Source: Escherichia coli (GTDB taxonomy: Bacteria > Pseudomonadota > Gammaproteobacteria > Enterobacterales > Enterobacteriaceae). Taken from it: 64,000 nt of DNA. The stretch lies in the NCBI RefSeq assembly GCF_024502345.1, contig NZ_JALDNN010000001.1; one strand, 5' to 3'. Made by a program: the position numbers and the translations under genes. Under the pieces are notes generated by a model. It was not told where the DNA came from and did no database searches. It was given only the letters and a program-made list of their open reading frames with translations. Of the stretch, positions 1 through 64,000 are shown piece by piece (the stretch's first letter is position 1; each line of letters begins with the position of its first letter).

Positions 1-54
1 TGGCTGGCCGATTCTCGCCATGTGGAACTAATACGTTCGCCAAACGCTGAATAA
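1..54 (+). CDS. citT: 3' end of upstream gene, probably citrate/succinate antiporter CitT (partial; frame ends ...SPNAE-stop at 52-54)
   Basis: Open frame running off the window start, ending TAA at 52-54; citT precedes rna in K-12 gene order (from memory). Identity not verifiable from 17 codons. Confidence 0.35.
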   Translation, partial: WLADSRHVELIRSPNAE

Positions 55-61
55 ATCATCA

Positions 62-96
62 CGCCCGCCAGGTAAGCCCACCTGGCGGGCTTTTTT
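62..96 (+). terminator. Rho-independent terminator (GC hairpin cgcccgccagg/cctggcgggc followed by TTTTTT)
   Basis: Perfect inverted repeat 62-72 and 81-90 followed by T6 at 91-96, directly after the upstream stop codon. Confidence 0.7.
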
Positions 97-144
97 ATGA
101 TTTAATAGATAGTATTCAGTGTATGTATGAGTTCCACACCCATT

Positions 145-951
145 ATGAAAGCATTCTGGCGTAACGCCGCGTTGCTCGCGGTTTCTCTGCTTCCCTTCTC
201 TTCTGCCAACGCCTTAGCGTTGCAGGCAAAACAGTATGGCGATTTTGATCGCTATGTCCTGGCTCTCTCCTGGCAAACCGGATTTTGCCAGAGTCAACAC
301 GATCGAAATCGTAACGAACGAGATGAATGTCGCCTGCAAACCGAAACGACCAACAAAGCTGATTTTCTGACCGTACATGGTCTGTGGCCAGGATTACCTA
401 AATCGGTCGCTGCCCGTGGTGTTGATGAACGCCGCTGGATGCGCTTCGGTTGCGCTACTCGCCCAATCCCGAATCTACCAGAAGCGCGCGCCAGCCGGAT
501 GTGTTCATCGCCGGAAACCGGATTATCACTGGAAACGGCCGCTAAACTAAGTGAAGTCATGCCAGGAGCTGGCGGACGTTCCTGCCTGGAACGCTACGAA
601 TATGCCAAACACGGTGCCTGCTTTGGTTTTGATCCGGACGCATACTTCGGTACGATGGTACGCCTGAATCAAGAAATTAAAGAGAGCGAAGCCGGAAAAT
701 TCCTTGCGGATAATTACGGTAAAACAGTGAGCCGCCGTGACTTTGACGCCGCCTTTGCCAAAAGCTGGGGAAAAGAGAACGTGAAAGCAGTTAAGCTAAC
801 GTGCCAGGGTAACCCTGCGTATTTGACTGAAATTCAGATCTCGATCAAAGCTGACGCCATCAACGCTCCGCTTTCTGCAAACTCATTCTTGCCACAACCT
901 CACCCAGGTAACTGTGGCAAAACCTTTGTGATTGATAAAGCGGGTTATTAA
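145..951 (+). CDS. rna: Ribonuclease I (periplasmic RNase T2 family), 268 aa
   Basis: ORF 127..951; translation from MKAFWRNAALLAVSLLPFSSANA (signal peptide) matches RNase I; start refined to the ATG at 145. Confidence 0.93.
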   Translation: MKAFWRNAALLAVSLLPFSSANALALQAKQYGDFDRYVLALSWQTGFCQSQHDRNRNERDECRLQTETTNKADFLTVHGLWPGLPKSVAARGVDERRWMRFGCATRPIPNLPEARASRMCSSPETGLSLETAAKLSEVMPGAGGRSCLERYEYAKHGACFGFDPDAYFGTMVRLNQEIKESEAGKFLADNYGKTVSRRDFDAAFAKSWGKENVKAVKLTCQGNPAYLTEIQISIKADAINAPLSANSFLPQPHPGNCGKTFVIDKAGY

Positions 952-1096
952 TCCTCTGATTTACAAAACACGCTAATTCGTCTTCCATAATCATGACGAT
1001 TAAGAATTATACATAATGCGCTGCATTGAGGAATTCCCTGAATGTGACGCAAATCACTTCAAAGAGTGAGCAACAGTCAGTATCATCATGTGAGTT

Positions 1097-1130
1097 AAAC
1101 CCTCGCCGCCTGACGGTGAGGGTTTTCTTT
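1097..1130 (+). terminator. Possible terminator hairpin in the rna-rnk intergenic region (ccctcgccg...cggtgaggg then TTTTCTTTT)
   Basis: Imperfect inverted repeat followed by a T-rich run; one mismatch in the stem. Confidence 0.35.
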
Positions 1131-1179
1131 TGGGTATGTTTATCTGCGACACTCGCAGTACCGACGACATGGAGTAAAA

Positions 1180-1590
1180 ATGTCCAGACCAACTATCATC
1201 ATTAACGACCTGGATGCCGAACGCATCGATATTCTGCTGGAGCAACCCGCCTATGCTGGTTTGCCAATCGCCGACGCGTTAAACGCAGAGTTGGATCGCG
1301 CCCAAATGTGTTCGCCAGAAGAGATGCCACACGACGTGGTGACAATGAACAGCCGGGTTAAATTCCGCAATCTTAGCGATGGCGAAGTGCGTGTGCGCAC
1401 GCTGGTGTATCCGGCAAAAATGACCGATAGCAATACTCAGCTTTCCGTTATGGCTCCGGTAGGTGCCGCACTGCTGGGACTGCGCGTTGGCGATTCCATT
1501 CACTGGGAACTTCCGGGCGGCGTTGCAACCCACCTTGAAGTGCTGGAACTCGAATACCAGCCAGAAGCTGCTGGCGACTACCTGCTTTAA
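1180..1590 (+). CDS. rnk: Regulator of nucleoside diphosphate kinase Rnk (GreA/GreB-like C-terminal domain), 136 aa
   Basis: ORF 1180..1590; [20 protein letters not shown]... matches Rnk. Confidence 0.92.
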
Positions 1591-1727
1591 TCCCATCTGC
1601 ACAAGCGATAACTCGCTTTGCCCAGAGGATGCACTCGCATCCTCTTTACGCAAAATCAGCAATTTTTCCTGGTTCTCACTGTTCACTTTTGCTGCAAAAT
1701 TATTCCGTTTCGTTTGTGGGAATAACC

Positions 1728-1817
1728 ATGGCAGAAGCATTTTACATCCTGATAGGATTTCTGATTATGGCGGCGATTATCGTCATGGCTGTCCTTTACC
1801 TCGAAAACCACTCCTGA
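1728..1817 (+). CDS. yldA: Small hydrophobic protein, 29 aa (MAEAFYILIGFLIMAAIIVMAVLYLENHS), YldA-like
   Basis: ATG at 1728 inside ORF 1629..1817; single predicted transmembrane helix; position between rnk and ybdR matches the K-12 small protein YldA as I recall it. Confidence 0.5.
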   Translation: MAEAFYILIGFLIMAAIIVMAVLYLENHS

Positions 1818-1820
1818 CGA

Positions 1821-2666
1821 TCATATTGTTCCCCCCGGCATCGCATTCACCAGACCTGAAACCGCCTTCTGCGCCGCCTCTGCGCTTTGTGCACCGGGTA
1901 CCAGAATCACCTTACGGCACTCCTCTTCACGTTTTTCGAAAATCTCATATCCCCGGGCGGCCTCTTCAAACGGCATATAGTGGGTAACAATTTCTTCTGG
2001 TTTCAGTAATCCTTTCTCAATTAACGGTAATAATTCTCCCAGCCATGCGTGAACGTGGGTCTGTCCCATTTTAAACGTCAACCCTTTATCAAAGGCGTCG
2101 CCAAACAGGAAACCGTGAATAAATCCAGCGTAGACGCCCGGTACGCTAACAATGCCGCCACGCCTGACCGCCCCAATACACTGACGCAACGCTTTACCGC
2201 TGCTGCCCTCCAGTTTCAGGTTAGTCAGCACCGTTTCCGTGGTGCTGCCTTTCGCTTCAAAACCGACGGCGTCTATTACTGCATCCACGCCCCGGTGACC
2301 TGCCGTTTGTTCAATAATTGACTGTGCCGGATCGCTATCTTCATCGAAATTAATCGGGATCGCGCCGTAGCGGTCGGCGGCGAAACGCAAGCGGTAGGGA
2401 TGATGATCAACAACAAAAATCTGTTCCGCACCGAGCAACCGTGCACAGGCGATTGTCAACAATCCCACAGGACCAGCACCATAGACTGCAACGCTTGAAC
2501 CTTGTTGGATCTGCGCATTTTTTGCTGCCTGCCATGCCGTTGGCAGAATATCAGAAAGGAAAAGCGCTTTATCATCTGCAAGCAAAGGCGGTACTTTAAA
2601 CGGCCCCACATTCCCTCTAGGGACGCGGACATATTCCGCCTGCCCACCATGTTCAGTGAGAATATA
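1821..2666 (-). pseudogene. ybdR: 5'-truncated Zn-dependent MDR-family dehydrogenase YbdR; only about the C-terminal 280 codons present
   Basis: ORF 1821..2609 carries the Rossmann GAGPVG motif near its own N-terminus; homology continues in frame 16 codons further ([14 protein letters not shown]) to a TAA at 2667-2669. The N-terminal catalytic domain (about 130 aa) is absent and there is no room for it before uspG at 2773. Confidence 0.6.
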
Positions 2667-2772
2667 TTAATCACAGAAACCGTTTGTAAGGAAAAAGAAC
2701 CAGACAAATATCAGGGATAAATATTATAATCATGGTGAATGATTTGTTCATGATTAACAGGGAGAAAGGGTT

Positions 2773-3201
2773 ATGTATAAGACAATCATTATGCCAGTTG
2801 ATGTATTTGAAATGGAATTGAGCGACAAAGCTGTTCGCCACGCTGAATTCCTCGCCCAGGATGACGGAGTTATTCATCTACTTCACGTACTACCCGGGTC
2901 AGCCAGCCTGAGCCTGCACCGTTTTGCCGCTGATGTGCGTCGTTTTGAAGAGCATCTGCAACATGAAGCAGAAGAACGTCTGCAAACGATGGTCAGCCAC
3001 TTCACCATCGATCCTTCCCGCATTAAACAACATGTCCGTTTTGGTAGCGTGCGGGATGAAGTCAATGAGTTGGCAGAAGAACTGGGGGCTGATGTTGTAG
3101 TTATTGGTTCTCGCAACCCATCGATTTCGACCCATCTGTTAGGTTCTAACGCCTCGAGCGTGATCCGCCACGCCAATCTGCCTGTACTGGTCGTTCGCTA
3201 A
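2773..3201 (+). CDS. uspG: Universal stress protein G, 142 aa
   Basis: ORF 2773..3201; [42 protein letters not shown]... matches UspG (YbdQ). Confidence 0.92.
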
Positions 3202-3220
3202 CAGATAAAAGTATTTATGC

Positions 3221-3253
3221 CGCCCTGCCTGGAACATCCCGGCAGGGCTTTTT
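3221..3253 (+). terminator. Rho-independent terminator of uspG (gccctgcctgg...cccggcagggc then TTTTT)
   Basis: Inverted repeat followed by a T-run just after the uspG stop. Confidence 0.65.
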
Positions 3254-3261
3254 AATGCCAT

Positions 3262-3296
3262 AAAAAAGCCGCCAGGTTTGACCCCGGCGGCTAAGC
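3262..3296 (-). terminator. Rho-independent terminator of ahpCF (minus strand: gccgccgggg...cctggcggc then TTTTTT)
   Basis: Inverted repeat plus T-run on the minus strand, just downstream of the ahpF stop at 3322. Confidence 0.65.
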
Positions 3297-3321
3297 AATT
3301 GCAGGTGAATCTTACTTCTTC

Positions 3322-4887
3322 TTATGCAGTTTTGGTGCGAATCAGGTAGTCAAAAGCACTCAGAGAGGCTTTGGCACCTTCGCCAGTGGCGATGATGATC
3401 TGCTTGTACGGAACCGTCGTACAGTCACCCGCTGCGAACACGCCTTTGACGTTGGTTTCGCATTTCGCATCAATGATAATCTCGCCCATGCGGTTACGTT
3501 CGACTGCGCCTTCCAGCCAGTTGGTGTTCGGCAGCAGACCAATCTGGACGAAAATACCGGCCAGTTCGATGTTGTGAATATCGCCGCTGACACGATCTCG
3601 ATATTCCAGACCAACGACTTTGCTGCCGTCGCCTTTCACTTCCGTGGTTTGCGCATTCAGAATAATGTCGACGTTTTTCAGGCTGCGCAGTTTGTCCTGC
3701 AGCACCTGGTCGGCTTTCATTTCTGGCGCAAATTCCAGCAGCGTTACGTGCTCAACGATACCCGCCAGGTCGATTGCCGCTTCCACGCCGGAGTTACCGC
3801 CGCCGATAACCGCTACGCGTTTGCCTTTAAACAGCGGGCCGTCGCAGTGCGGGCAGTAGGTCACGCCTTTGGTGCGATACTGATCTTCGCCCGGAACGTT
3901 CATGTTGCGCCATTTTGCTCCGGTCGCCACGATAATGCTGCGTGCTTTCAGTACCGCGCCAGAAGCTGTTTCAATCTGATGCAGACCACCTTCAACTGCT
4001 GCTGGGATCAGTTTGCTGGCGCTCTGGCTGTCGATCACATCAACGTCGTATTCATCAACGTGAACTTTCAGTGCGCCTGCCAACTTCTGCCCTTCAGTCT
4101 TCGGTACAGAAATGTAGTTTTCGATATCAACGGTATCGAGGATCTGACCACCAAAACGTTCGCCCATCAGACCGGTACGGATGCCTTTACGTGCGGAGTA
4201 AATTGCTGCCGCTGCACCCGCCGGGCCGGAACCAACGATTAATACGTCATAAGCATCACGCTTGTTCAGCTCTTCTGCCGCACGTTTTTCCGCGCCAGTA
4301 TCAATTTTGGCAACGATTTCAGTCAACGTCATGCGGCCCTGACCAAACTCTTTCCCGTTTACGAACACTGCCGGAACGCCCATCACGTTACGATCGGTGA
4401 TTTCGTTCTGGAAGGTGCCGCCATCAATTGCAGTGTGCTTGATGCGCGGGTTCAGTACGCTCATCAGGTTCAGCGCCTGCACCACGTCCGGGCAGTTGTG
4501 GCAAGAGAGCGAGTAATAGGTTTCGAATTCAAAATCACCGTCAATATGGCGAATCTGCTCCAGCAGAGACTGCGCTTCTTTCGACGGATGACCACCGGTC
4601 CACAGCAACGCCAGTACCAGCGAGGTGAACTCATGGCCCAGCGGGGAGCCTGCAAAACGTGGCCCCTGGTTGGAACCTGGGTTGGTGATCAGGAAAGACG
4701 GCTTACGCACTGGCAAGCTGTTATCTTCTTTAAAGGTGACTTTGTCTGACAGTTCTGCGATTTCAGCCAACAGTTCCTTGATTTCTGCCGATTTAGCGCT
4801 GTCATCCAGCGTGGCAATTAACTCAACAGGCTTGGTCAATTTCTCAAGGTAAGCCTTGAGTTGAGTTTTCATATTTGTGTCGAGCAT
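3322..4887 (-). CDS. ahpF: Alkyl hydroperoxide reductase subunit F (NADH-dependent peroxiredoxin reductase), 521 aa
   Basis: ORF 3322..4917; start refined to [17 protein letters not shown]; CxxC redox motif (CPHCDGP) and FAD/NAD-binding glycine motifs present. Confidence 0.93.
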
Positions 4888-5043
4888 GTTTATCTCCTGG
4901 GCTTTAAACATCATCATGCAAGCGGCCTCTACGGCTACCTGGATGCAGCTTGCATCATGGTGCGGGGAAGAAAATCGGGTGCCGCAGCACCCGAAGAATT
5001 AGGTGAATTTCCGAAGTATTTCGCGTCAGAGCAAGGCGGCTAG

Positions 5044-5128
5044 CCTGTGAATCCCCGGGAGCTTACACAAGTAAGTGACCGGGGTGAGCGGGCGACGCCA
5101 ACGCCGCTATGGCGTGAAAGACGAAGGA
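5044..5128. repeat. ERIC/IRU-type intergenic repeat (core gtgaatccccgggagcttacacaagtaagtgaccggggtgagcg)
   Basis: Match to the ERIC consensus core with its internal inverted repeat, in the ahpC-ahpF intergenic region. Confidence 0.7.
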
Positions 5129-5131
5129 AAT

Positions 5132-5695
5132 TTAGATTTTACCAACCAGGTCCAGAGACGGAGCCAGAGTTGCTTCACCTTCTTTCCATTTAGCCGGGCA
5201 AACTTCACCTGGGTGAGAAGCTACGTACTGTGCTGCTTTGATTTTACGCAGCAGGTCAGACGCGTCACGGCCAATGCCTTCAGCGGTAACTTCGATTGCC
5301 TGGATGATACCCTGCGGGTCAACAACGAAGGTCGCACGGTCAGCCAGACCTTCATCTTCACGCATGTTGTCGAAGTTACGGGTCAGGGCGCCAGTCGGGT
5401 CGCCGATCATCGCATATTTGATTTTAGCGATGGTTTCAGAGCTGCTGTGCCATGCTTTGTGGGTGAAGTGAGTATCGGTAGATACTGCGTATACGTCTAC
5501 GCCCAGTTTCTGCAGTTCTTCGTAGTGGTCAGCAACGTCACCCAGTTCGGTCGGGCATACGAAAGTAAAGTCAGCCGGGTAGAAGAAGAAGACGCTCCAG
5601 CGGCCTTCGGTATCTTTTTCGGTGATTTCGATGAATTCGCCGTTTTTGAATGCCTGGTTTTTAAAAGGTTTAATTTTGGTGTTAATCAAGGACAT
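5132..5695 (-). CDS. ahpC: Alkyl hydroperoxide reductase subunit C (2-Cys peroxiredoxin), 187 aa
   Basis: ORF 5132..5695; [51 protein letters not shown]... matches AhpC. Confidence 0.95.
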
Positions 5696-8185: not shown

Positions 8186-9242
8186 GGCTTTGTTGAATAA
8201 ATCGAACTTTTGCTGAGTTGAAGGATCAGATCACGTATCTTCCCGACAACGCAGACCGTTCCGTGGCAAAGCAAAAGTTCAAAATCACCAACTGGCCCAC
8301 CTACAATAAAGCCCTCATCAACCGTGGCTCCATAACTTTCTGGCTGGATGATGAAGCTATTCAGGCCTGGTATGAGTCAGCAACACCTTCTTCACGAGGC
8401 AGACCTCAGCGCTATTCTGACCTTGCCATCACGACTGTGCTGGTCATTAAACGCGTATTCAGGCTGACCCTGCGCGCTGCGCAGGGCTTTATTGATTCCA
8501 TTTTTTCTCTGATGAACGTTCCGCTACGCTGCCCGGATTACAGCTGTGTCAGCAGGCGGGCAAAGTCGGTTAATGTCAGTTTCAAAACGCCCACCCGGGG
8601 TGAAATCGCACACCTGGTAATTGATTCCACCGGGCTGAAGGTCTTCGGTGAAGGCGAGTGGAAAGTCAAAAAGCATGGCCAGGAACGCCGCCGTATCTGG
8701 CGTAAGCTGCATCTCGCCGTTGACAGTAAAACACATGAAATCATCTGCGCTGACCTGTCGCTGAACAACGTTACGGACTCAGAGGCCTTCCCCGGGTTAA
8801 TCCGGCAAACCCACCGGAAAATCAGGTCAGCCGCCGCCGATGGCGCTTACGATACCCGGCTATGTCACGATGAACTGCGGCGTAAGAAAATCAGCGCGCT
8901 TATCCCTCCCCGAAAAGGTGCGGGTTACTGGCCCGGTGAATATGCAGACCGTAACCGTGCAGTGGCTAATCAGCGAATGACCGGGAGTAATGCGCGGTGG
9001 AAATGGACAACAGATTACAACCGTCGCTCGATAGCGGAAACGGCGATGTACCGGGTAAAACAGCTGTTCGGGGGTTCACTGACACTGCGTGACTACGATG
9101 GTCAGGTTGCAGAGGCTATGGCCCTGGTACGAGCGCTGAACAAAATGACGAAAGCAGGTATGCCTGAAAGCGTGCGTATTGCCTGAAAACACAACCCGCT
9201 ACGGGGGAGACTTACCCGAAATCTGATTTATTCAACAAAGCC
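8186..9242 (+). mobile_element. IS903-type insertion sequence (IS5 family), 1057 bp, with 18-bp terminal inverted repeats ggctttgttgaataaatc; 9-bp target duplication gcggcaaag at 8177-8185 and 9243-9251
   Basis: Terminal inverted repeats at 8186-8203 and 9225-9242; identical 9-bp direct repeats flank the element; one transposase ORF inside. Confidence 0.9.
8263..9186 (+). CDS. IS903 transposase (DDE, IS5 family); likely GTG start giving 307 aa (ORF track starts at TTG 8218)
   Basis: ORF 8218..9186; [38 protein letters not shown]... matches IS903/IS102 transposase. Confidence 0.85.
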   Translation: MAKQKFKITNWPTYNKALINRGSITFWLDDEAIQAWYESATPSSRGRPQRYSDLAITTVLVIKRVFRLTLRAAQGFIDSIFSLMNVPLRCPDYSCVSRRAKSVNVSFKTPTRGEIAHLVIDSTGLKVFGEGEWKVKKHGQERRRIWRKLHLAVDSKTHEIICADLSLNNVTDSEAFPGLIRQTHRKIRSAAADGAYDTRLCHDELRRKKISALIPPRKGAGYWPGEYADRNRAVANQRMTGSNARWKWTTDYNRRSIAETAMYRVKQLFGGSLTLRDYDGQVAEAMALVRALNKMTKAGMPESVRIA

Positions 9243-20872: not shown

Positions 20873-21025
20873 TCGGTCGCTAACCTAAAAGCAAACGCGC
20901 ACTATGTCAACTCTTGAGGTAACGCAATCTGCAACTCGGGGTTGCATCTGGTTGTGGTTACAATGAAAATGAGAAGCATTATTGATGGATTCGCATAAGC
21001 GCAATGTGATGTCCTGCGCCGTTCT

Positions 21026-21127
21026 GCCCCCTCTCCCTTCCAGGGTGAGGGCTGGGGTGAGGGTTAATGTTCGCACCAGTGCTGGCTGTTCCCCTCACCC
21101 TAACCCTCTCCCCAAAGGGGCGAGGGG
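21026..21127. repeat. Long GC-rich imperfect inverted repeat in the fepB 5' leader; contains a copy of the GC-rich repeat seen at 13617..13654
   Basis: ccctctcccttccagggtgagggctggggtgaggg ... ccctcaccctaaccctctccccaaaggggcgaggg can pair as a long stem-loop. Confidence 0.55.
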
Positions 21128-21194
21128 ACGGATTGTGCGCTTTGTCGAATTTGTCATTACGCCCTTAACCTTATTAATAACAGGAAGCTGATTT

Positions 21195-60070: not shown

Positions 60071-60114
60071 AGAGCAAAGCGGAACGGATAAGACGGGGTT
60101 AAATGAAGAAGAAA

Positions 60115-60159
60115 TGGCGCGCCCTGCAGGATTCGAACCTGCGGCCCACGACTTAGAAG
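60115..60159 (-). pseudogene. pauD: 3' fragment of a tRNA-Arg(UCU) gene (argU-like attachment-site remnant, pauD-like); acceptor/T-arm through the anticodon region only
   Basis: tggcgcgccctgcaggattcgaacctgcggcccacgacttagaag is the reverse complement of the 3' 45 nt of tRNA-Arg(UCU); the 5' half is absent. Confidence 0.7.
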
Positions 60160-60581
60160 TTCCTAGAACGACATTTTAAGTCAACAAATTACCGCGCCAT
60201 CTCTGCGCTCATACGTCCCACTACCTCAAAACATGTAAAGCCTTGCAAGCCATTGTGAGGCCTTATGTGTCTCAGTTTTGTCCCTCTTTTTTGTACTAAA
60301 AAACATAGCAATTGAGGATAAACCTCATGCTATTTTCGCTTATATGCCTTTAAAGGCATGGCGCTTAAATAGATAAAAACACCACAAAATCATAAAAAAC
60401 CACACAGTAAAACCGCAACATAAAACAATAACAGATAATTAAACCAAAAACAGATAGCGCATTGTGATAATCATTCAATACTAAACAAAATATAAACAGT
60501 GGAGCAATATGTGATTGACTCATTAAGTTAGATATAAAAAATACATATTCAATCATTAAAACGATTGAATGGAGAACTTTT

Positions 60582-60832
60582 ATGCGGGCGAAACTTCTGG
60601 GAATAGTTCTGACAACCCCTATTGCGATCAGCTCTTTTGCTTCTACCGAGACTATATCGTTTACTCCTGACAACATAAATGCGGACATTAGTCTTGGAAC
60701 TCTGAGCGGAAAAACAAAAGAGCGCGTTTATCTAGCTGAAGAAGGAGGCCGAAAAGTCAGTCAACTCGACTGGAAATTCAATAACGCTGCAATTATTAAA
60801 GGTGCAATTAATTGGGATTTGATGCCCCAGAT
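60582..60832 (+). pseudogene. ompT: Outer membrane protease OmpT, truncated after about codon 84 by IS903 (only the signal peptide and first about 60 mature residues remain)
   Basis: ORF 60582..60863; MRAKLLGIVLTTPIAISSFASTETISFTPDNINADISLGTLSGKTKERVYLAEEGGRKVSQLDWKFNNAAIIKGAINWDLMPQ then reads into the IS903 inverted repeat. Confidence 0.85.
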
Positions 60833-61889
60833 GGCTTTGTTGAATAAATCGAACTTTTGCTGAGTTGAAGGATCAGATCACGTATCTTCCCGACAACGCA
60901 GACCGTTCCGTGGCAAAGCAAAAGTTCAAAATCACCAACTGGCCCACCTACAATAAAGCCCTCATCAACCGTGGCTCCATAACTTTCTGGCTGGATGATG
61001 AAGCTATTCAGGCCTGGTATGAGTCAGCAACACCTTCTTCACGAGGCAGACCTCAGCGCTATTCTGACCTTGCCATCACGACTGTGCTGGTCATTAAACG
61101 CGTATTCAGGCTGACCCTGCGCGCTGCGCAGGGCTTTATTGATTCCATTTTTTCTCTGATGAACGTTCCGCTACGCTGCCCGGATTACAGCTGTGTCAGC
61201 AGGCGGGCAAAGTCGGTTAATGTCAGTTTCAAAACGCCCACCCGGGGTGAAATCGCACACCTGGTAATTGATTCCACCGGGCTGAAGGTCTTCGGTGAAG
61301 GCGAGTGGAAAGTCAAAAAGCATGGCCAGGAACGCCGCCGTATCTGGCGTAAGCTGCATCTCGCCGTTGACAGTAAAACACATGAAATCATCTGCGCTGA
61401 CCTGTCGCTGAACAACGTTACGGACTCAGAGGCCTTCCCCGGGTTAATCCGGCAAACCCACCGGAAAATCAGGTCAGCCGCCGCCGATGGCGCTTACGAT
61501 ACCCGGCTATGTCACGATGAACTGCGGCGTAAGAAAATCAGCGCGCTTATCCCTCCCCGAAAAGGTGCGGGTTACTGGCCCGGTGAATATGCAGACCGTA
61601 ACCGTGCAGTGGCTAATCAGCGAATGACCGGGAGTAATGCGCGGTGGAAATGGACAACAGATTACAACCGTCGCTCGATAGCGGAAACGGCGATGTACCG
61701 GGTAAAACAGCTGTTCGGGGGTTCACTGACACTGCGTGACTACGATGGTCAGGTTGCAGAGGCTATGGCCCTGGTACGAGCGCTGAACAAAATGACGAAA
61801 GCAGGTATGCCTGAAAGCGTGCGTATTGCCTGAAAACACAACCCGCTACGGGGGAGACTTACCCGAAATCTGATTTATTCAACAAAGCC
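60833..61889 (+). mobile_element. Second IS903-type element, 1057 bp, same orientation as the copy at 8186..9242 and apparently identical; no target-site duplication (flanks gccccagat / tcgctgaaa)
   Basis: Same 18-bp terminal inverted repeats at 60833-60850 and 61872-61889; left flank is ompT, right flank is the interior of an IS3-family element. Confidence 0.88.
60910..61833 (+). CDS. IS903 transposase (copy 2), 307 aa from GTG (ORF track 60865..61833)
   Basis: Translation identical to the transposase at 8263..9186. Confidence 0.85.
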
Positions 61890-62080
61890 TCGCTGAAAGT
61901 GGAATGTATCCATGGAGAACACTTTATCAGCCGGGAAATAATGCGGGCAACGGTGTTTAATTATATCGAATGTGATTACAATCGGTGGCGGCGGCACAGT
62001 TGGTGTGGCGGCCTCAGTCCGGAACAATTTGAAAACCAGAACCTCGCTTAGGCCTGTGTCCATATTACGTGGGTAGGATC
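61890..62080 (+). mobile_element. 3' remnant (about 190 bp) of an IS3-family element: last about 50 codons of the OrfB transposase (...[28 protein letters not shown]) plus right inverted repeat ending ...ggtaggatca
   Basis: Open frame from the IS903 junction to a TAG at 62047-62049, followed by an IS3-group-like terminal repeat ending CA. Confidence 0.6.
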
Positions 62081-62331
62081 ACACCTTCTTCCACACTTTC
62101 TGGAACATTTAGGTAACAACCATCTGGATATTGGTGTTGGAACTGGGTTTTACCTTACTCACGTACCTGAGAGTAGTCTGATATCTTTAATGGATTTGAA
62201 CGAAGCTAGCCTGAACGCGGCATCTACAAGGGCTGGGGAATCAAAAATTAAACATAAAATTAACCATTGATGTAGCCCCCTGAAACACCGGACAGTAGCT
62301 GTATCTCCAGATAAGAGATAGGCTTGAATAT

Positions 62332-62727
62332 ATGTCTAACACTAACGCCAATTTTGAGATGACCGGGATCCTGTTAGGGCAAGAAGTCCGTAAACGTAAA
62401 ACTCCTCAGGAGAAGATCGCCATTATCCAGCAGACGATGGAGCCGGGTATGAATGTCTCCCATGTCGCCCGCCTGCATGGTATCCAGCCCAGCCTGCTGT
62501 TTAAGTGGAAGAAGCAATATCAGGAAGGCAGCCTCACCGCCGTTGCGGCTGGAGAGGAAGTCGTTCCTGCTTCTGAGCTTACTGCTGCTCTGAAGCAGGT
62601 CCGGGAGCTTCAGCGCCTTCTGGGCAAGAAAACGATGGAAGTTGAGATCCTGAAAGAAGCCGTGGAGTACGGTCAGTCGCGAAAATGGATAGCGCACGCG
62701 CCCTTGTTGCCAAAGGACGGGGAATAG
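62332..62727 (+). CDS. IS2-group transposase OrfA (helix-turn-helix DNA-binding subunit), 131 aa
   Basis: ORF 62332..62727; clearly related to, but not identical with, IS2 InsC as I recall it (shared blocks [46 protein letters not shown]...LKEAVEYG). Confidence 0.8.
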
Positions 62728-63566
62728 CCATGGTCAGCCGGACCATGGGCGTGTCGCGTGCGCAACTGTCACTGCGGATTAACCGTTCTGCCGACTGGCA
62801 GGACAGGCGCTGTAACCGGCGTAATGAAGAAGCAGACGCAGAAATACTGTCGGCTATCCTCAACATTATCAGCGATATGCCGAGTTATGGTTATCGACGC
62901 GTGTGGGGCATCCTGCGCAAGCAACGTCGCACAGAGGGACAGCCACCTGTGAATGCCAAACGGCTTTACAGGATAATGAGCGAGCATAACCTGTTGTTGT
63001 TGCATCACAAACCAGAGCGACCGAAGCGTGAACATAAGGGCAAGATAGCGGTGGCAGAAAGCGATATGCGCTGGTGTTCAGATGGCTTCGAGTTCGGCTG
63101 CGACAACGGCGAAAAACTGCGGGTAACGTTCGCGCTGGACTGCTGCGACCGTGAGGCCATAGACTGGGCAGCAAGCACGGGAGGCTATGACAGTTCGACC
63201 GTGCAGGATGTGATGCTGAGGTCGGTGGAAAAGCGCTTCGGCGACAGGTTGCCCGACACAGCGGTGCAGTGGCTGACGGATAACGGTTCAGCGTATACCG
63301 CGTATGAAACGCGGAGGTTCGCGAGAGAGCTGAATCTGGAGCCCTGCACAACAGCGGTGAGCAGCCCGCAGAGTAATGGCATGGCCGAACGGTTCGTGAA
63401 AACGATGAAAGAAGACTATATCGCGTTCATGCCAAAACCGGATGTGAGAACAGCACTGCGAAACCTTGCAGTAGCGTTCACGCATTACAATGAAAACCAC
63501 CCGCACAGCGCGCTGGGATATCACTCCCCGAGGGAATACCGGCGGCAGCGGACATCGTTAACTTAA
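62685..63566 (+). CDS. IS2-group transposase OrfB (DDE integrase domain), 293 aa as an ORF; probably expressed as an OrfAB fusion by -1 frameshifting
   Basis: ORF 62685..63566 in the -1 frame relative to orfA with a 43-nt overlap; conserved [42 protein letters not shown] blocks. Confidence 0.8.
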
Positions 63567-63672
63567 GATACAAAAGCTGTTCGGAGATGGAGGGTCAAGA
63601 TCACATAAAATTAACCATGATGTTTTTGAACCTTATCCCGCGGCGTTACATGGTCAATTTGATTCCATTTCC

Positions 63673-63972
63673 ATGTTTTACCTTCTTCACTGCCTGCCTG
63701 GAAATATATCTACAAAAAGCTGTGTAATACGCAATGCGGCGCAGGCCTTAACTGACGATGGAACTCTATACGGAGCCACAATTCTTGGCGATGGAGTTGT
63801 GCACAATAGCTTCGGTCAAAAACTGATGCGCATTTACAATCAGAAAGGCATCTTTTCAAACACAAAAGATTCCGAAGAAGGCTTAACACATATACTCTCA
63901 GAGCATTTCGAGAATGTTAAAACCAAGGTTCAAGGTACTGTAGTAATGTTTTCCGCTTCAGGGAAAAAATAG
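63673..63972 (+). CDS. Hypothetical protein, 99 aa, no recognisable family
   Basis: ORF 63673..63972 just beyond the IS2-group element; identity unknown; could be a spurious ORF. Confidence 0.25.
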   Translation: MFYLLHCLPGNISTKSCVIRNAAQALTDDGTLYGATILGDGVVHNSFGQKLMRIYNQKGIFSNTKDSEEGLTHILSEHFENVKTKVQGTVVMFSASGKK

Positions 63973-64000
63973 CATCCAACCGCAGCACGTTCTTGCATAA

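Follow-up and report, generated by a model that had tools for sequence, protein, structure and literature searches.

The window analysed here is a 64,000-nucleotide stretch of an Escherichia coli contig, and its first 5,700 positions hold a locus of the E. coli rna-rnk-yldA-ybdR-uspG-ahpFC type, as read from its open reading frames and from the annotation of matching genomes (Table 1). The ent/fep cluster and the cus genes are also present in the window. Within the locus, ybdR is represented by a 3' remnant that converges with yldA, the stop codons of the two genes being 3 nt apart, and a scan of the interval between them within the window detected no terminator. In K-12, ybdR and yldA form a convergent pair with overlapping transcripts, an excludon (PMC12288877); the interplay of the two genes could have been altered by the truncation.

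Table 1. Features of the rna-ahpFC locus in the window (positions are those of the window)
Feature	Position	Strand	Basis or remark
rna	127-951	+	locus gene order
rnk	1180-1590	+	locus gene order
yldA, 29-aa small membrane protein gene	1728-1817	+	ORF and annotation of matching genomes; convergent with ybdR remnant
ybdR remnant (pseudogene), third base of codon 137 to stop of the 412-aa gene	1821-2649	-	alignment to full-length alleles, Pfam
Stop codon of the ybdR remnant frame	1821-1823	-	ORF reading
First canonical in-frame start of the ybdR remnant, GTG	2607-2609	-	262-aa ORF called here by gene finders
Deletion junction	2649/2650	.	507 bp absent relative to intact genomes
Retained ybdR-uspG spacer, 123 of the original 220 bp	2650-2772	.	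alignment; contains both divergent promoters
TAA bounding the ybdR remnant frame upstream, in former leader DNA	2667-2669	-	frame reading
uspG promoter: -35 CAGACA 2701-2706, -10 TATAAT 2725-2730, start G2737	2701-2737	+	consensus scan, published start site
ybdR promoter: -35 TGAACA 2750-2745, -10 TATAAT 2728-2723, start about 2716-2718	2716-2750	-	scans, published start sites
uspG, 142 aa, intact	2773-3201	+	ORF, annotation, Usp domain PF00582
ahpF	after uspG	-	locus gene order
ahpC	after ahpF	-	locus gene order

The locus was aligned to the genomes of strain 401651 and of the K-12-like strain 2A, both of which carry full-length ybdR. The alignments contain one ungapped 507-bp gap, at window position 2649/2650, with flanks that are about 98-99% identical. 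According to the annotation of intact genomes, ybdR measures 1,239 bp (412 aa) and is separated from uspG by a spacer of 220 bp. The loss therefore comprises the first 410 nt of the gene, from the start codon to the second base of codon 137, and the 97 bp of spacer that adjoin the ybdR start codon, ribosome-binding site included. The same picture emerges from the comparison with ybdR of E. coli K-12 (b0608), which encodes a 412-aa putative zinc-dependent MDR alcohol dehydrogenase and has the same position, orientation, promoter and neighbours (yldA and uspG). Residues 138-412 are about 98-99% identical in the two, whereas the window is without residues 1-137, the ribosome-binding site, 97 nt of the leader, the ADH_N domain and the zinc ligands.

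What is left of ybdR reads as a stop-bounded frame of 281 codons in which the GAGPVG motif starts at codon 63; in the complete 412-aa protein this motif occupies residues 194-199. The residues LTEH that precede GGQAEY in the remnant frame are former leader DNA translated in frame. The original prediction had described a ybdR-like frame with an upstream TAA at 2667-2669, GAGPVG about 60 residues further on and 103 bp between the frame and the uspG start, and had concluded that the 5' part of the gene is deleted and not frameshifted. Its coordinates are correct (the 103 bp are positions 2670-2772, before the ATG at 2773), and the single clean gap against two intact genomes bears out the conclusion. 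The alignment to other E. coli ybdR-uspG regions that it called for sized the deletion at 507 bp. As it had also stated, the uspG upstream region adjoins the truncation, with 123 bp of native DNA between the junction and the ATG. Reference YbdR has 412 residues, not the roughly 280 that would have made the present frame a full-length gene.

In the 412-aa YbdR, Pfam places ADH_N (PF08240) at residues 25-153 with 91 bits and ADH_zinc_N at residues 197-285. A Pfam search of the 281-codon frame of the window did not find ADH_N; it returned ADH_zinc_N (PF00107) at residues 66-153 with 47.6 bits (cut-off 31.8), and GAGPVG is present, i.e. the Rossmann-fold NAD(P)-binding domain with its GxGxxG motif is retained. 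Full-length YbdR aligns end to end with zinc-dependent alcohol and formaldehyde dehydrogenases of solved structure, the best being 4cpd (E = 3.7e-73). The motifs ICGSD (C38), GHE (H60, E61) and CGDCFFCRLQQYAAC (C90, C93, C96, C104) all fall within codons 1-136, which are deleted. From knowledge of the MDR family and the alignment with 4cpd, we take C38, H60 and E61 to be the ligands of the catalytic zinc, and C90, C93, C96 and C104 to be the structural-zinc cysteines of the Cys-x2-Cys-x2-Cys-x7-Cys lobe. The absence of the catalytic domain, which had been predicted, is thus seen both in the missing Pfam domain and in the position of the zinc ligands. Of YbdR, the remnant encodes just the Rossmann half, which binds NAD(P), and the C-terminal tail; because the catalytic domain and the zinc ligands are missing, its product should be unable to work as a zinc-dependent dehydrogenase, on general knowledge of the MDR family.

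To assess how the allele is distributed, window 1500-3300 was used as a megablast query on 5,426 complete E. coli genomes, of which 5,422 matched. The query was covered in full in 3,602 of the 5,422 matching genomes, which were counted as having intact ybdR; among the matches listed, genomes with intact ybdR showed the query in two pieces spanning 2,308 bp, as against 1,801 bp in the window. A second query of 40 bp, centred on the junction and unable to seed on intact genomes, matched two of the 5,426 genomes, FDAARGOS_943 and FDAARGOS_944. In FDAARGOS_943 the equivalent of window 1821-2648 is annotated by PGAP as a pseudogene, "zinc-binding dehydrogenase; incomplete; missing N-terminus". This RefSeq pseudogene (I6H00_RS11635, with a counterpart in FDAARGOS_944) has a deletion junction identical to that of the window; the two remnants differ at 7 of 829 bases, four of the differences being amino-acid changes, and at its synonymous sites the remnant follows another background haplotype. 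The exact 262-aa ORF starting from the GTG at 2609 was found on 43 public contigs (NCBI, Logan, ENA), and one Logan contig equals window 1-5609 with a single mismatch.

It is hardly conceivable that the gap arose in assembly or sequencing, or that the 507 bp are an insertion in the other strains. Nothing specific speaks for either; the question arises only because the lineage of the window lies outside the complete genomes searched, the best match to window 1500-3300 being 99.6%. Two genomes finished independently of each other have exactly this junction, as do many independent contigs, which shows that it is not an artefact of assembly, and the 507 bp encode the conserved ADH_N domain, homologous to solved structures, which marks them as ancestral gene sequence. 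The deletion allele is real; it is rare among finished genomes, and it occurs in a sequenced lineage that the complete-genome set does not include.

Most of the remaining matching genomes, about 1,820 in number, are without ybdR; they include ST131 and other B2-type strains. In these genomes yldA is followed by 123 bp and then by uspG, and this 123-bp spacer gave no alignment with the K-12-type spacer. The interval compared is 1823-1947 in the ybdR-less locus L004 and 1818-2772 in the window. Because the ybdR-less spacer cannot be aligned to the DNA upstream of uspG in K-12-type genomes, uspG has two unrelated promoter regions within E. coli. The ybdR-less haplotype resembles the window in having no functional ybdR beside an intact uspG; it differs in that the whole gene and the spacer are gone, whereas the window has lost only a third of the gene and still has its native promoters. 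PMC6811581 reports that ybdR is pseudogenised in the Shigella sonnei lineage CenAsiaIII and reads this as reductive evolution; the same gene has thus been lost in the E. coli/Shigella group, though not necessarily by the same event. Since about one third of E. coli genomes are without the whole gene, ybdR is plainly dispensable in the species. E. coli shows three states of ybdR: intact, wholly absent, and rarely truncated at the 5' end.

The junction reads CTGCCCACCA followed directly by TGTTCAGTGAG, and the breakpoints in the intact sequence are CCA/GG and CCTGG/. Comparison of the breakpoints between the window and the intact sequence revealed no microhomology, and the junction is free of IS remnants. 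A repeat-mediated deletion by way of the CCA/GG and CCTGG/ sites was considered and rejected; it would leave CCWGG, and the window reads CCATG. With neither microhomology nor an IS fragment at the junction, we infer that the 507 bp were lost from the chromosome in a single event of illegitimate recombination.

A contig of ENA assembly ERZ1744992, from a metagenome or an isolate, agrees with the window in the remnant, the junction and the DNA upstream of uspG, showing one mismatch over window 1500-2750. Over window 1-5025 it shows 108 mismatches, 39 of them in 3000-3250 alone, and its flanks are about 2% divergent. The near identity of a deletion block of about 1.3 kb, next to flanks that diverge much more, suggests that the deletion allele, or the DNA flanking it, has been exchanged between lineages by recombination.

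A consensus scan of the retained 123 bp identified two strong sigma-70-like sites, each matching at 10 of 12 positions: CAGACA-18-TATAAT on the plus strand (2701-2730) and TGAACA-16-TATAAT on the minus strand (2750-2723). The palindromic ATTATAAT at 2723-2730 supplies the -10 element on both strands. These two sites are the only matches of the scan in the intact spacer of a K-12-like genome, where their sequence is identical; the intact counterpart of ATTATAAT lies at positions 3231-3238 of locus L003. Two spacer SNPs, at 2685 and 2736, are common to the window and FDAARGOS_943 and differ from both intact alleles. The SNP T2685 converts CTTACG to CTTACA and thereby gives a weak extra promoter-like match on the minus strand, CTTACA-18-TATATT at 2690-2661, just upstream of the junction.

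Published transcription start sites were taken from the comparison table in the supplement of PMC10469882, with the column meanings taken from the methods of that paper. It places the uspG start 36 nt before the ATG both in K-12 (RegulonDB v10.5) and in EDL933 (Cappable-seq), and the ybdR start 166 nt before the ATG in K-12 and 164, 228 and 229 nt before it in EDL933. No entry for a uspG or ybdR start site was found in the Rend-seq, ROSE or S. flexneri M90T supplements. The ybdR distances were converted to window coordinates by the 508-nt offset obtained from the alignment. On the distances in that table, uspG starts at G2737, seven bases past its -10 element, and ybdR (164-166 nt) at 2716-2718, five to seven bases past its own -10 and 67-69 nt within the retained DNA. 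The SNP T2736, a C-to-T change, falls at position -1 relative to the uspG start site.

Since the start sites of both genes fall in the retained 123 bp, both mapped promoters survive. The suggestion that the deletion had removed the ybdR promoter is thereby contradicted, as the start sites and the TGAACA-16-TATAAT promoter are in retained DNA. The companion suggestion, that part of the uspG upstream regulatory region was removed, holds in the literal sense that about -88 to -184 relative to the uspG start is lost; the core promoter and the start site are intact. On the ybdR side the leader measures about 165 nt, of which the distal 97 nt are lost together with the ribosome-binding site, the start codon and 136 codons. 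The promoters of uspG and ybdR are arranged back to back and overlap, with one common -10 element. Two polymerases are barred from occupying ATTATAAT at once, which suggests that the two genes may be expressed in a mutually exclusive manner.

The coding sequence of uspG, its 36-nt leader, its Shine-Dalgarno sequence and its core promoter are all intact, behind 123 bp of native upstream DNA. Window 2650-3322 has no mismatch with FDAARGOS_943, whose UspG protein (WP_000278505.1) is shared with a strain that has intact ybdR, and the precomputed domain annotation assigns the Usp domain PF00582 to the 142-aa product. Because the promoters, the leader and the Shine-Dalgarno sequence survive, we expect uspG expression to be essentially normal. 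The deletion might nevertheless act mainly through uspG, whose regulation would have changed with the loss of -88 to -184 and the arrival of ybdR coding DNA beside its promoter. We regard this as unlikely. The missing 97 bp of spacer upstream of the uspG promoter are in its favour and could contain an unmapped upstream regulator of uspG; the C-to-T change at position -1, shared by the window and FDAARGOS_943 against two intact alleles, points the same way. Yet nothing has changed in the core promoter, start site, leader or coding sequence, the accessible literature, which is thin, describes no regulatory site in the lost stretch, and a literature search gave nothing specific on a characterised uspG promoter or regulator site. 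About one third of E. coli, moreover, have an unrelated 123-bp region upstream of uspG and no ybdR, so that uspG tolerates other contexts.

For signs of decay, the 275 common codons were compared in four alleles: the window, FDAARGOS_943 and two intact alleles. Changes private to the window are K148R, S161A and A296G, and FDAARGOS_943 has a private serine at codon 225, a position occupied by arginine or histidine in the other alleles. The changes specific to the deletion lineages are hence four nonsynonymous and no synonymous ones, and a comparison of the two intact alleles over the same codons gives two nonsynonymous and seven synonymous changes (Fisher's exact p = 0.02, with 13 changes in the four alleles and a test picked post hoc). 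Private changes that are all nonsynonymous would fit relaxed constraint, on small numbers and a post hoc comparison.

The retained promoter has consequences for the remnant itself. It would still be transcribed from its own promoter as a truncated RNA; having no native translation start, most of this RNA would go untranslated, and its synthesis would tend to terminate early. Ribosomes might to some extent initiate at the GTG at 2609, which has AGAGGG ahead of it, and so make a 262-aa fragment without the catalytic domain. That this ORF is a functional shorter gene, encoding a Rossmann-only NAD(P)-binding protein made from the GTG by way of the retained ybdR promoter, seems to us very improbable. 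Such a gene would have a promoter and start site that were kept, a Shine-Dalgarno-like AGAGGG before an in-frame GTG, and a 262-aa ORF that gene finders call and that recurs exactly on the 43 contigs. But the ORF begins midway in a conserved domain of the 412-aa protein and is without ADH_N and all the Cys, His and Glu zinc ligands, PGAP flags it as a pseudogene, the four lineage-specific substitutions are all nonsynonymous (on the post hoc test above), and the allele occurs in only two of 5,426 complete genomes.

Elsewhere in the window, several differences from other E. coli genomes were observed. A copy of IS903B at 8186-9242 (322-aa transposase, 8218-9186) interrupts the 5' part of ybdN, which is PAPS-reductase-like, with what appears to be a 9-bp target duplication when compared with FDAARGOS_943. 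A second IS903B with an identical transposase (60865-61833) lies downstream of envY. The entC-fepB intergenic region contains an extra 184 bp relative to FDAARGOS_943 (window 20982-21164); this segment is GC-rich, has inverted arms of the CCCTC/GAGGG type and resembles a small intergenic repeat element. In window 60100-64000, envY is followed by the second IS903B and then by an IS3-family element (ORFs 62332-62727 and 62685-63566). None of the complete E. coli genomes matches window 60100-64000 over 80% of its length, and ompT, the next gene after envY in matching genomes, was not located there; the region has possibly been rearranged by IS elements.

Taken together, ybdR shows clear orthology to an intact gene and a lesion that removes the start codon, the ribosome-binding site and an essential domain. 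We conclude, with a probability of roughly 0.93, that ybdR is here a pseudogene produced by a single 507-bp deletion and a rare allele of an oft-absent gene. Its pseudogene status is already recognised by RefSeq in both finished genomes with the identical junction. As the ybdR promoter survives, the remnant may not be inert: it might interfere with yldA in excludon fashion, encode a 262-aa Rossmann-only protein, or belong to an allele spread by recombination and selection. We consider these effects, as a group, quite improbable. Loss of ybdR in this lineage is ordinary gene decay, and the same kind of lesion is already known. For annotation, the 262-aa ORF should be labelled as a ybdR pseudogene and not as a dehydrogenase. 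Beyond correct annotation the significance is small; the locus illustrates gene decay neatly, and it yields as a useful by-product the layout of the uspG and ybdR promoters around a shared palindromic -10 element, untouched by the deletion.
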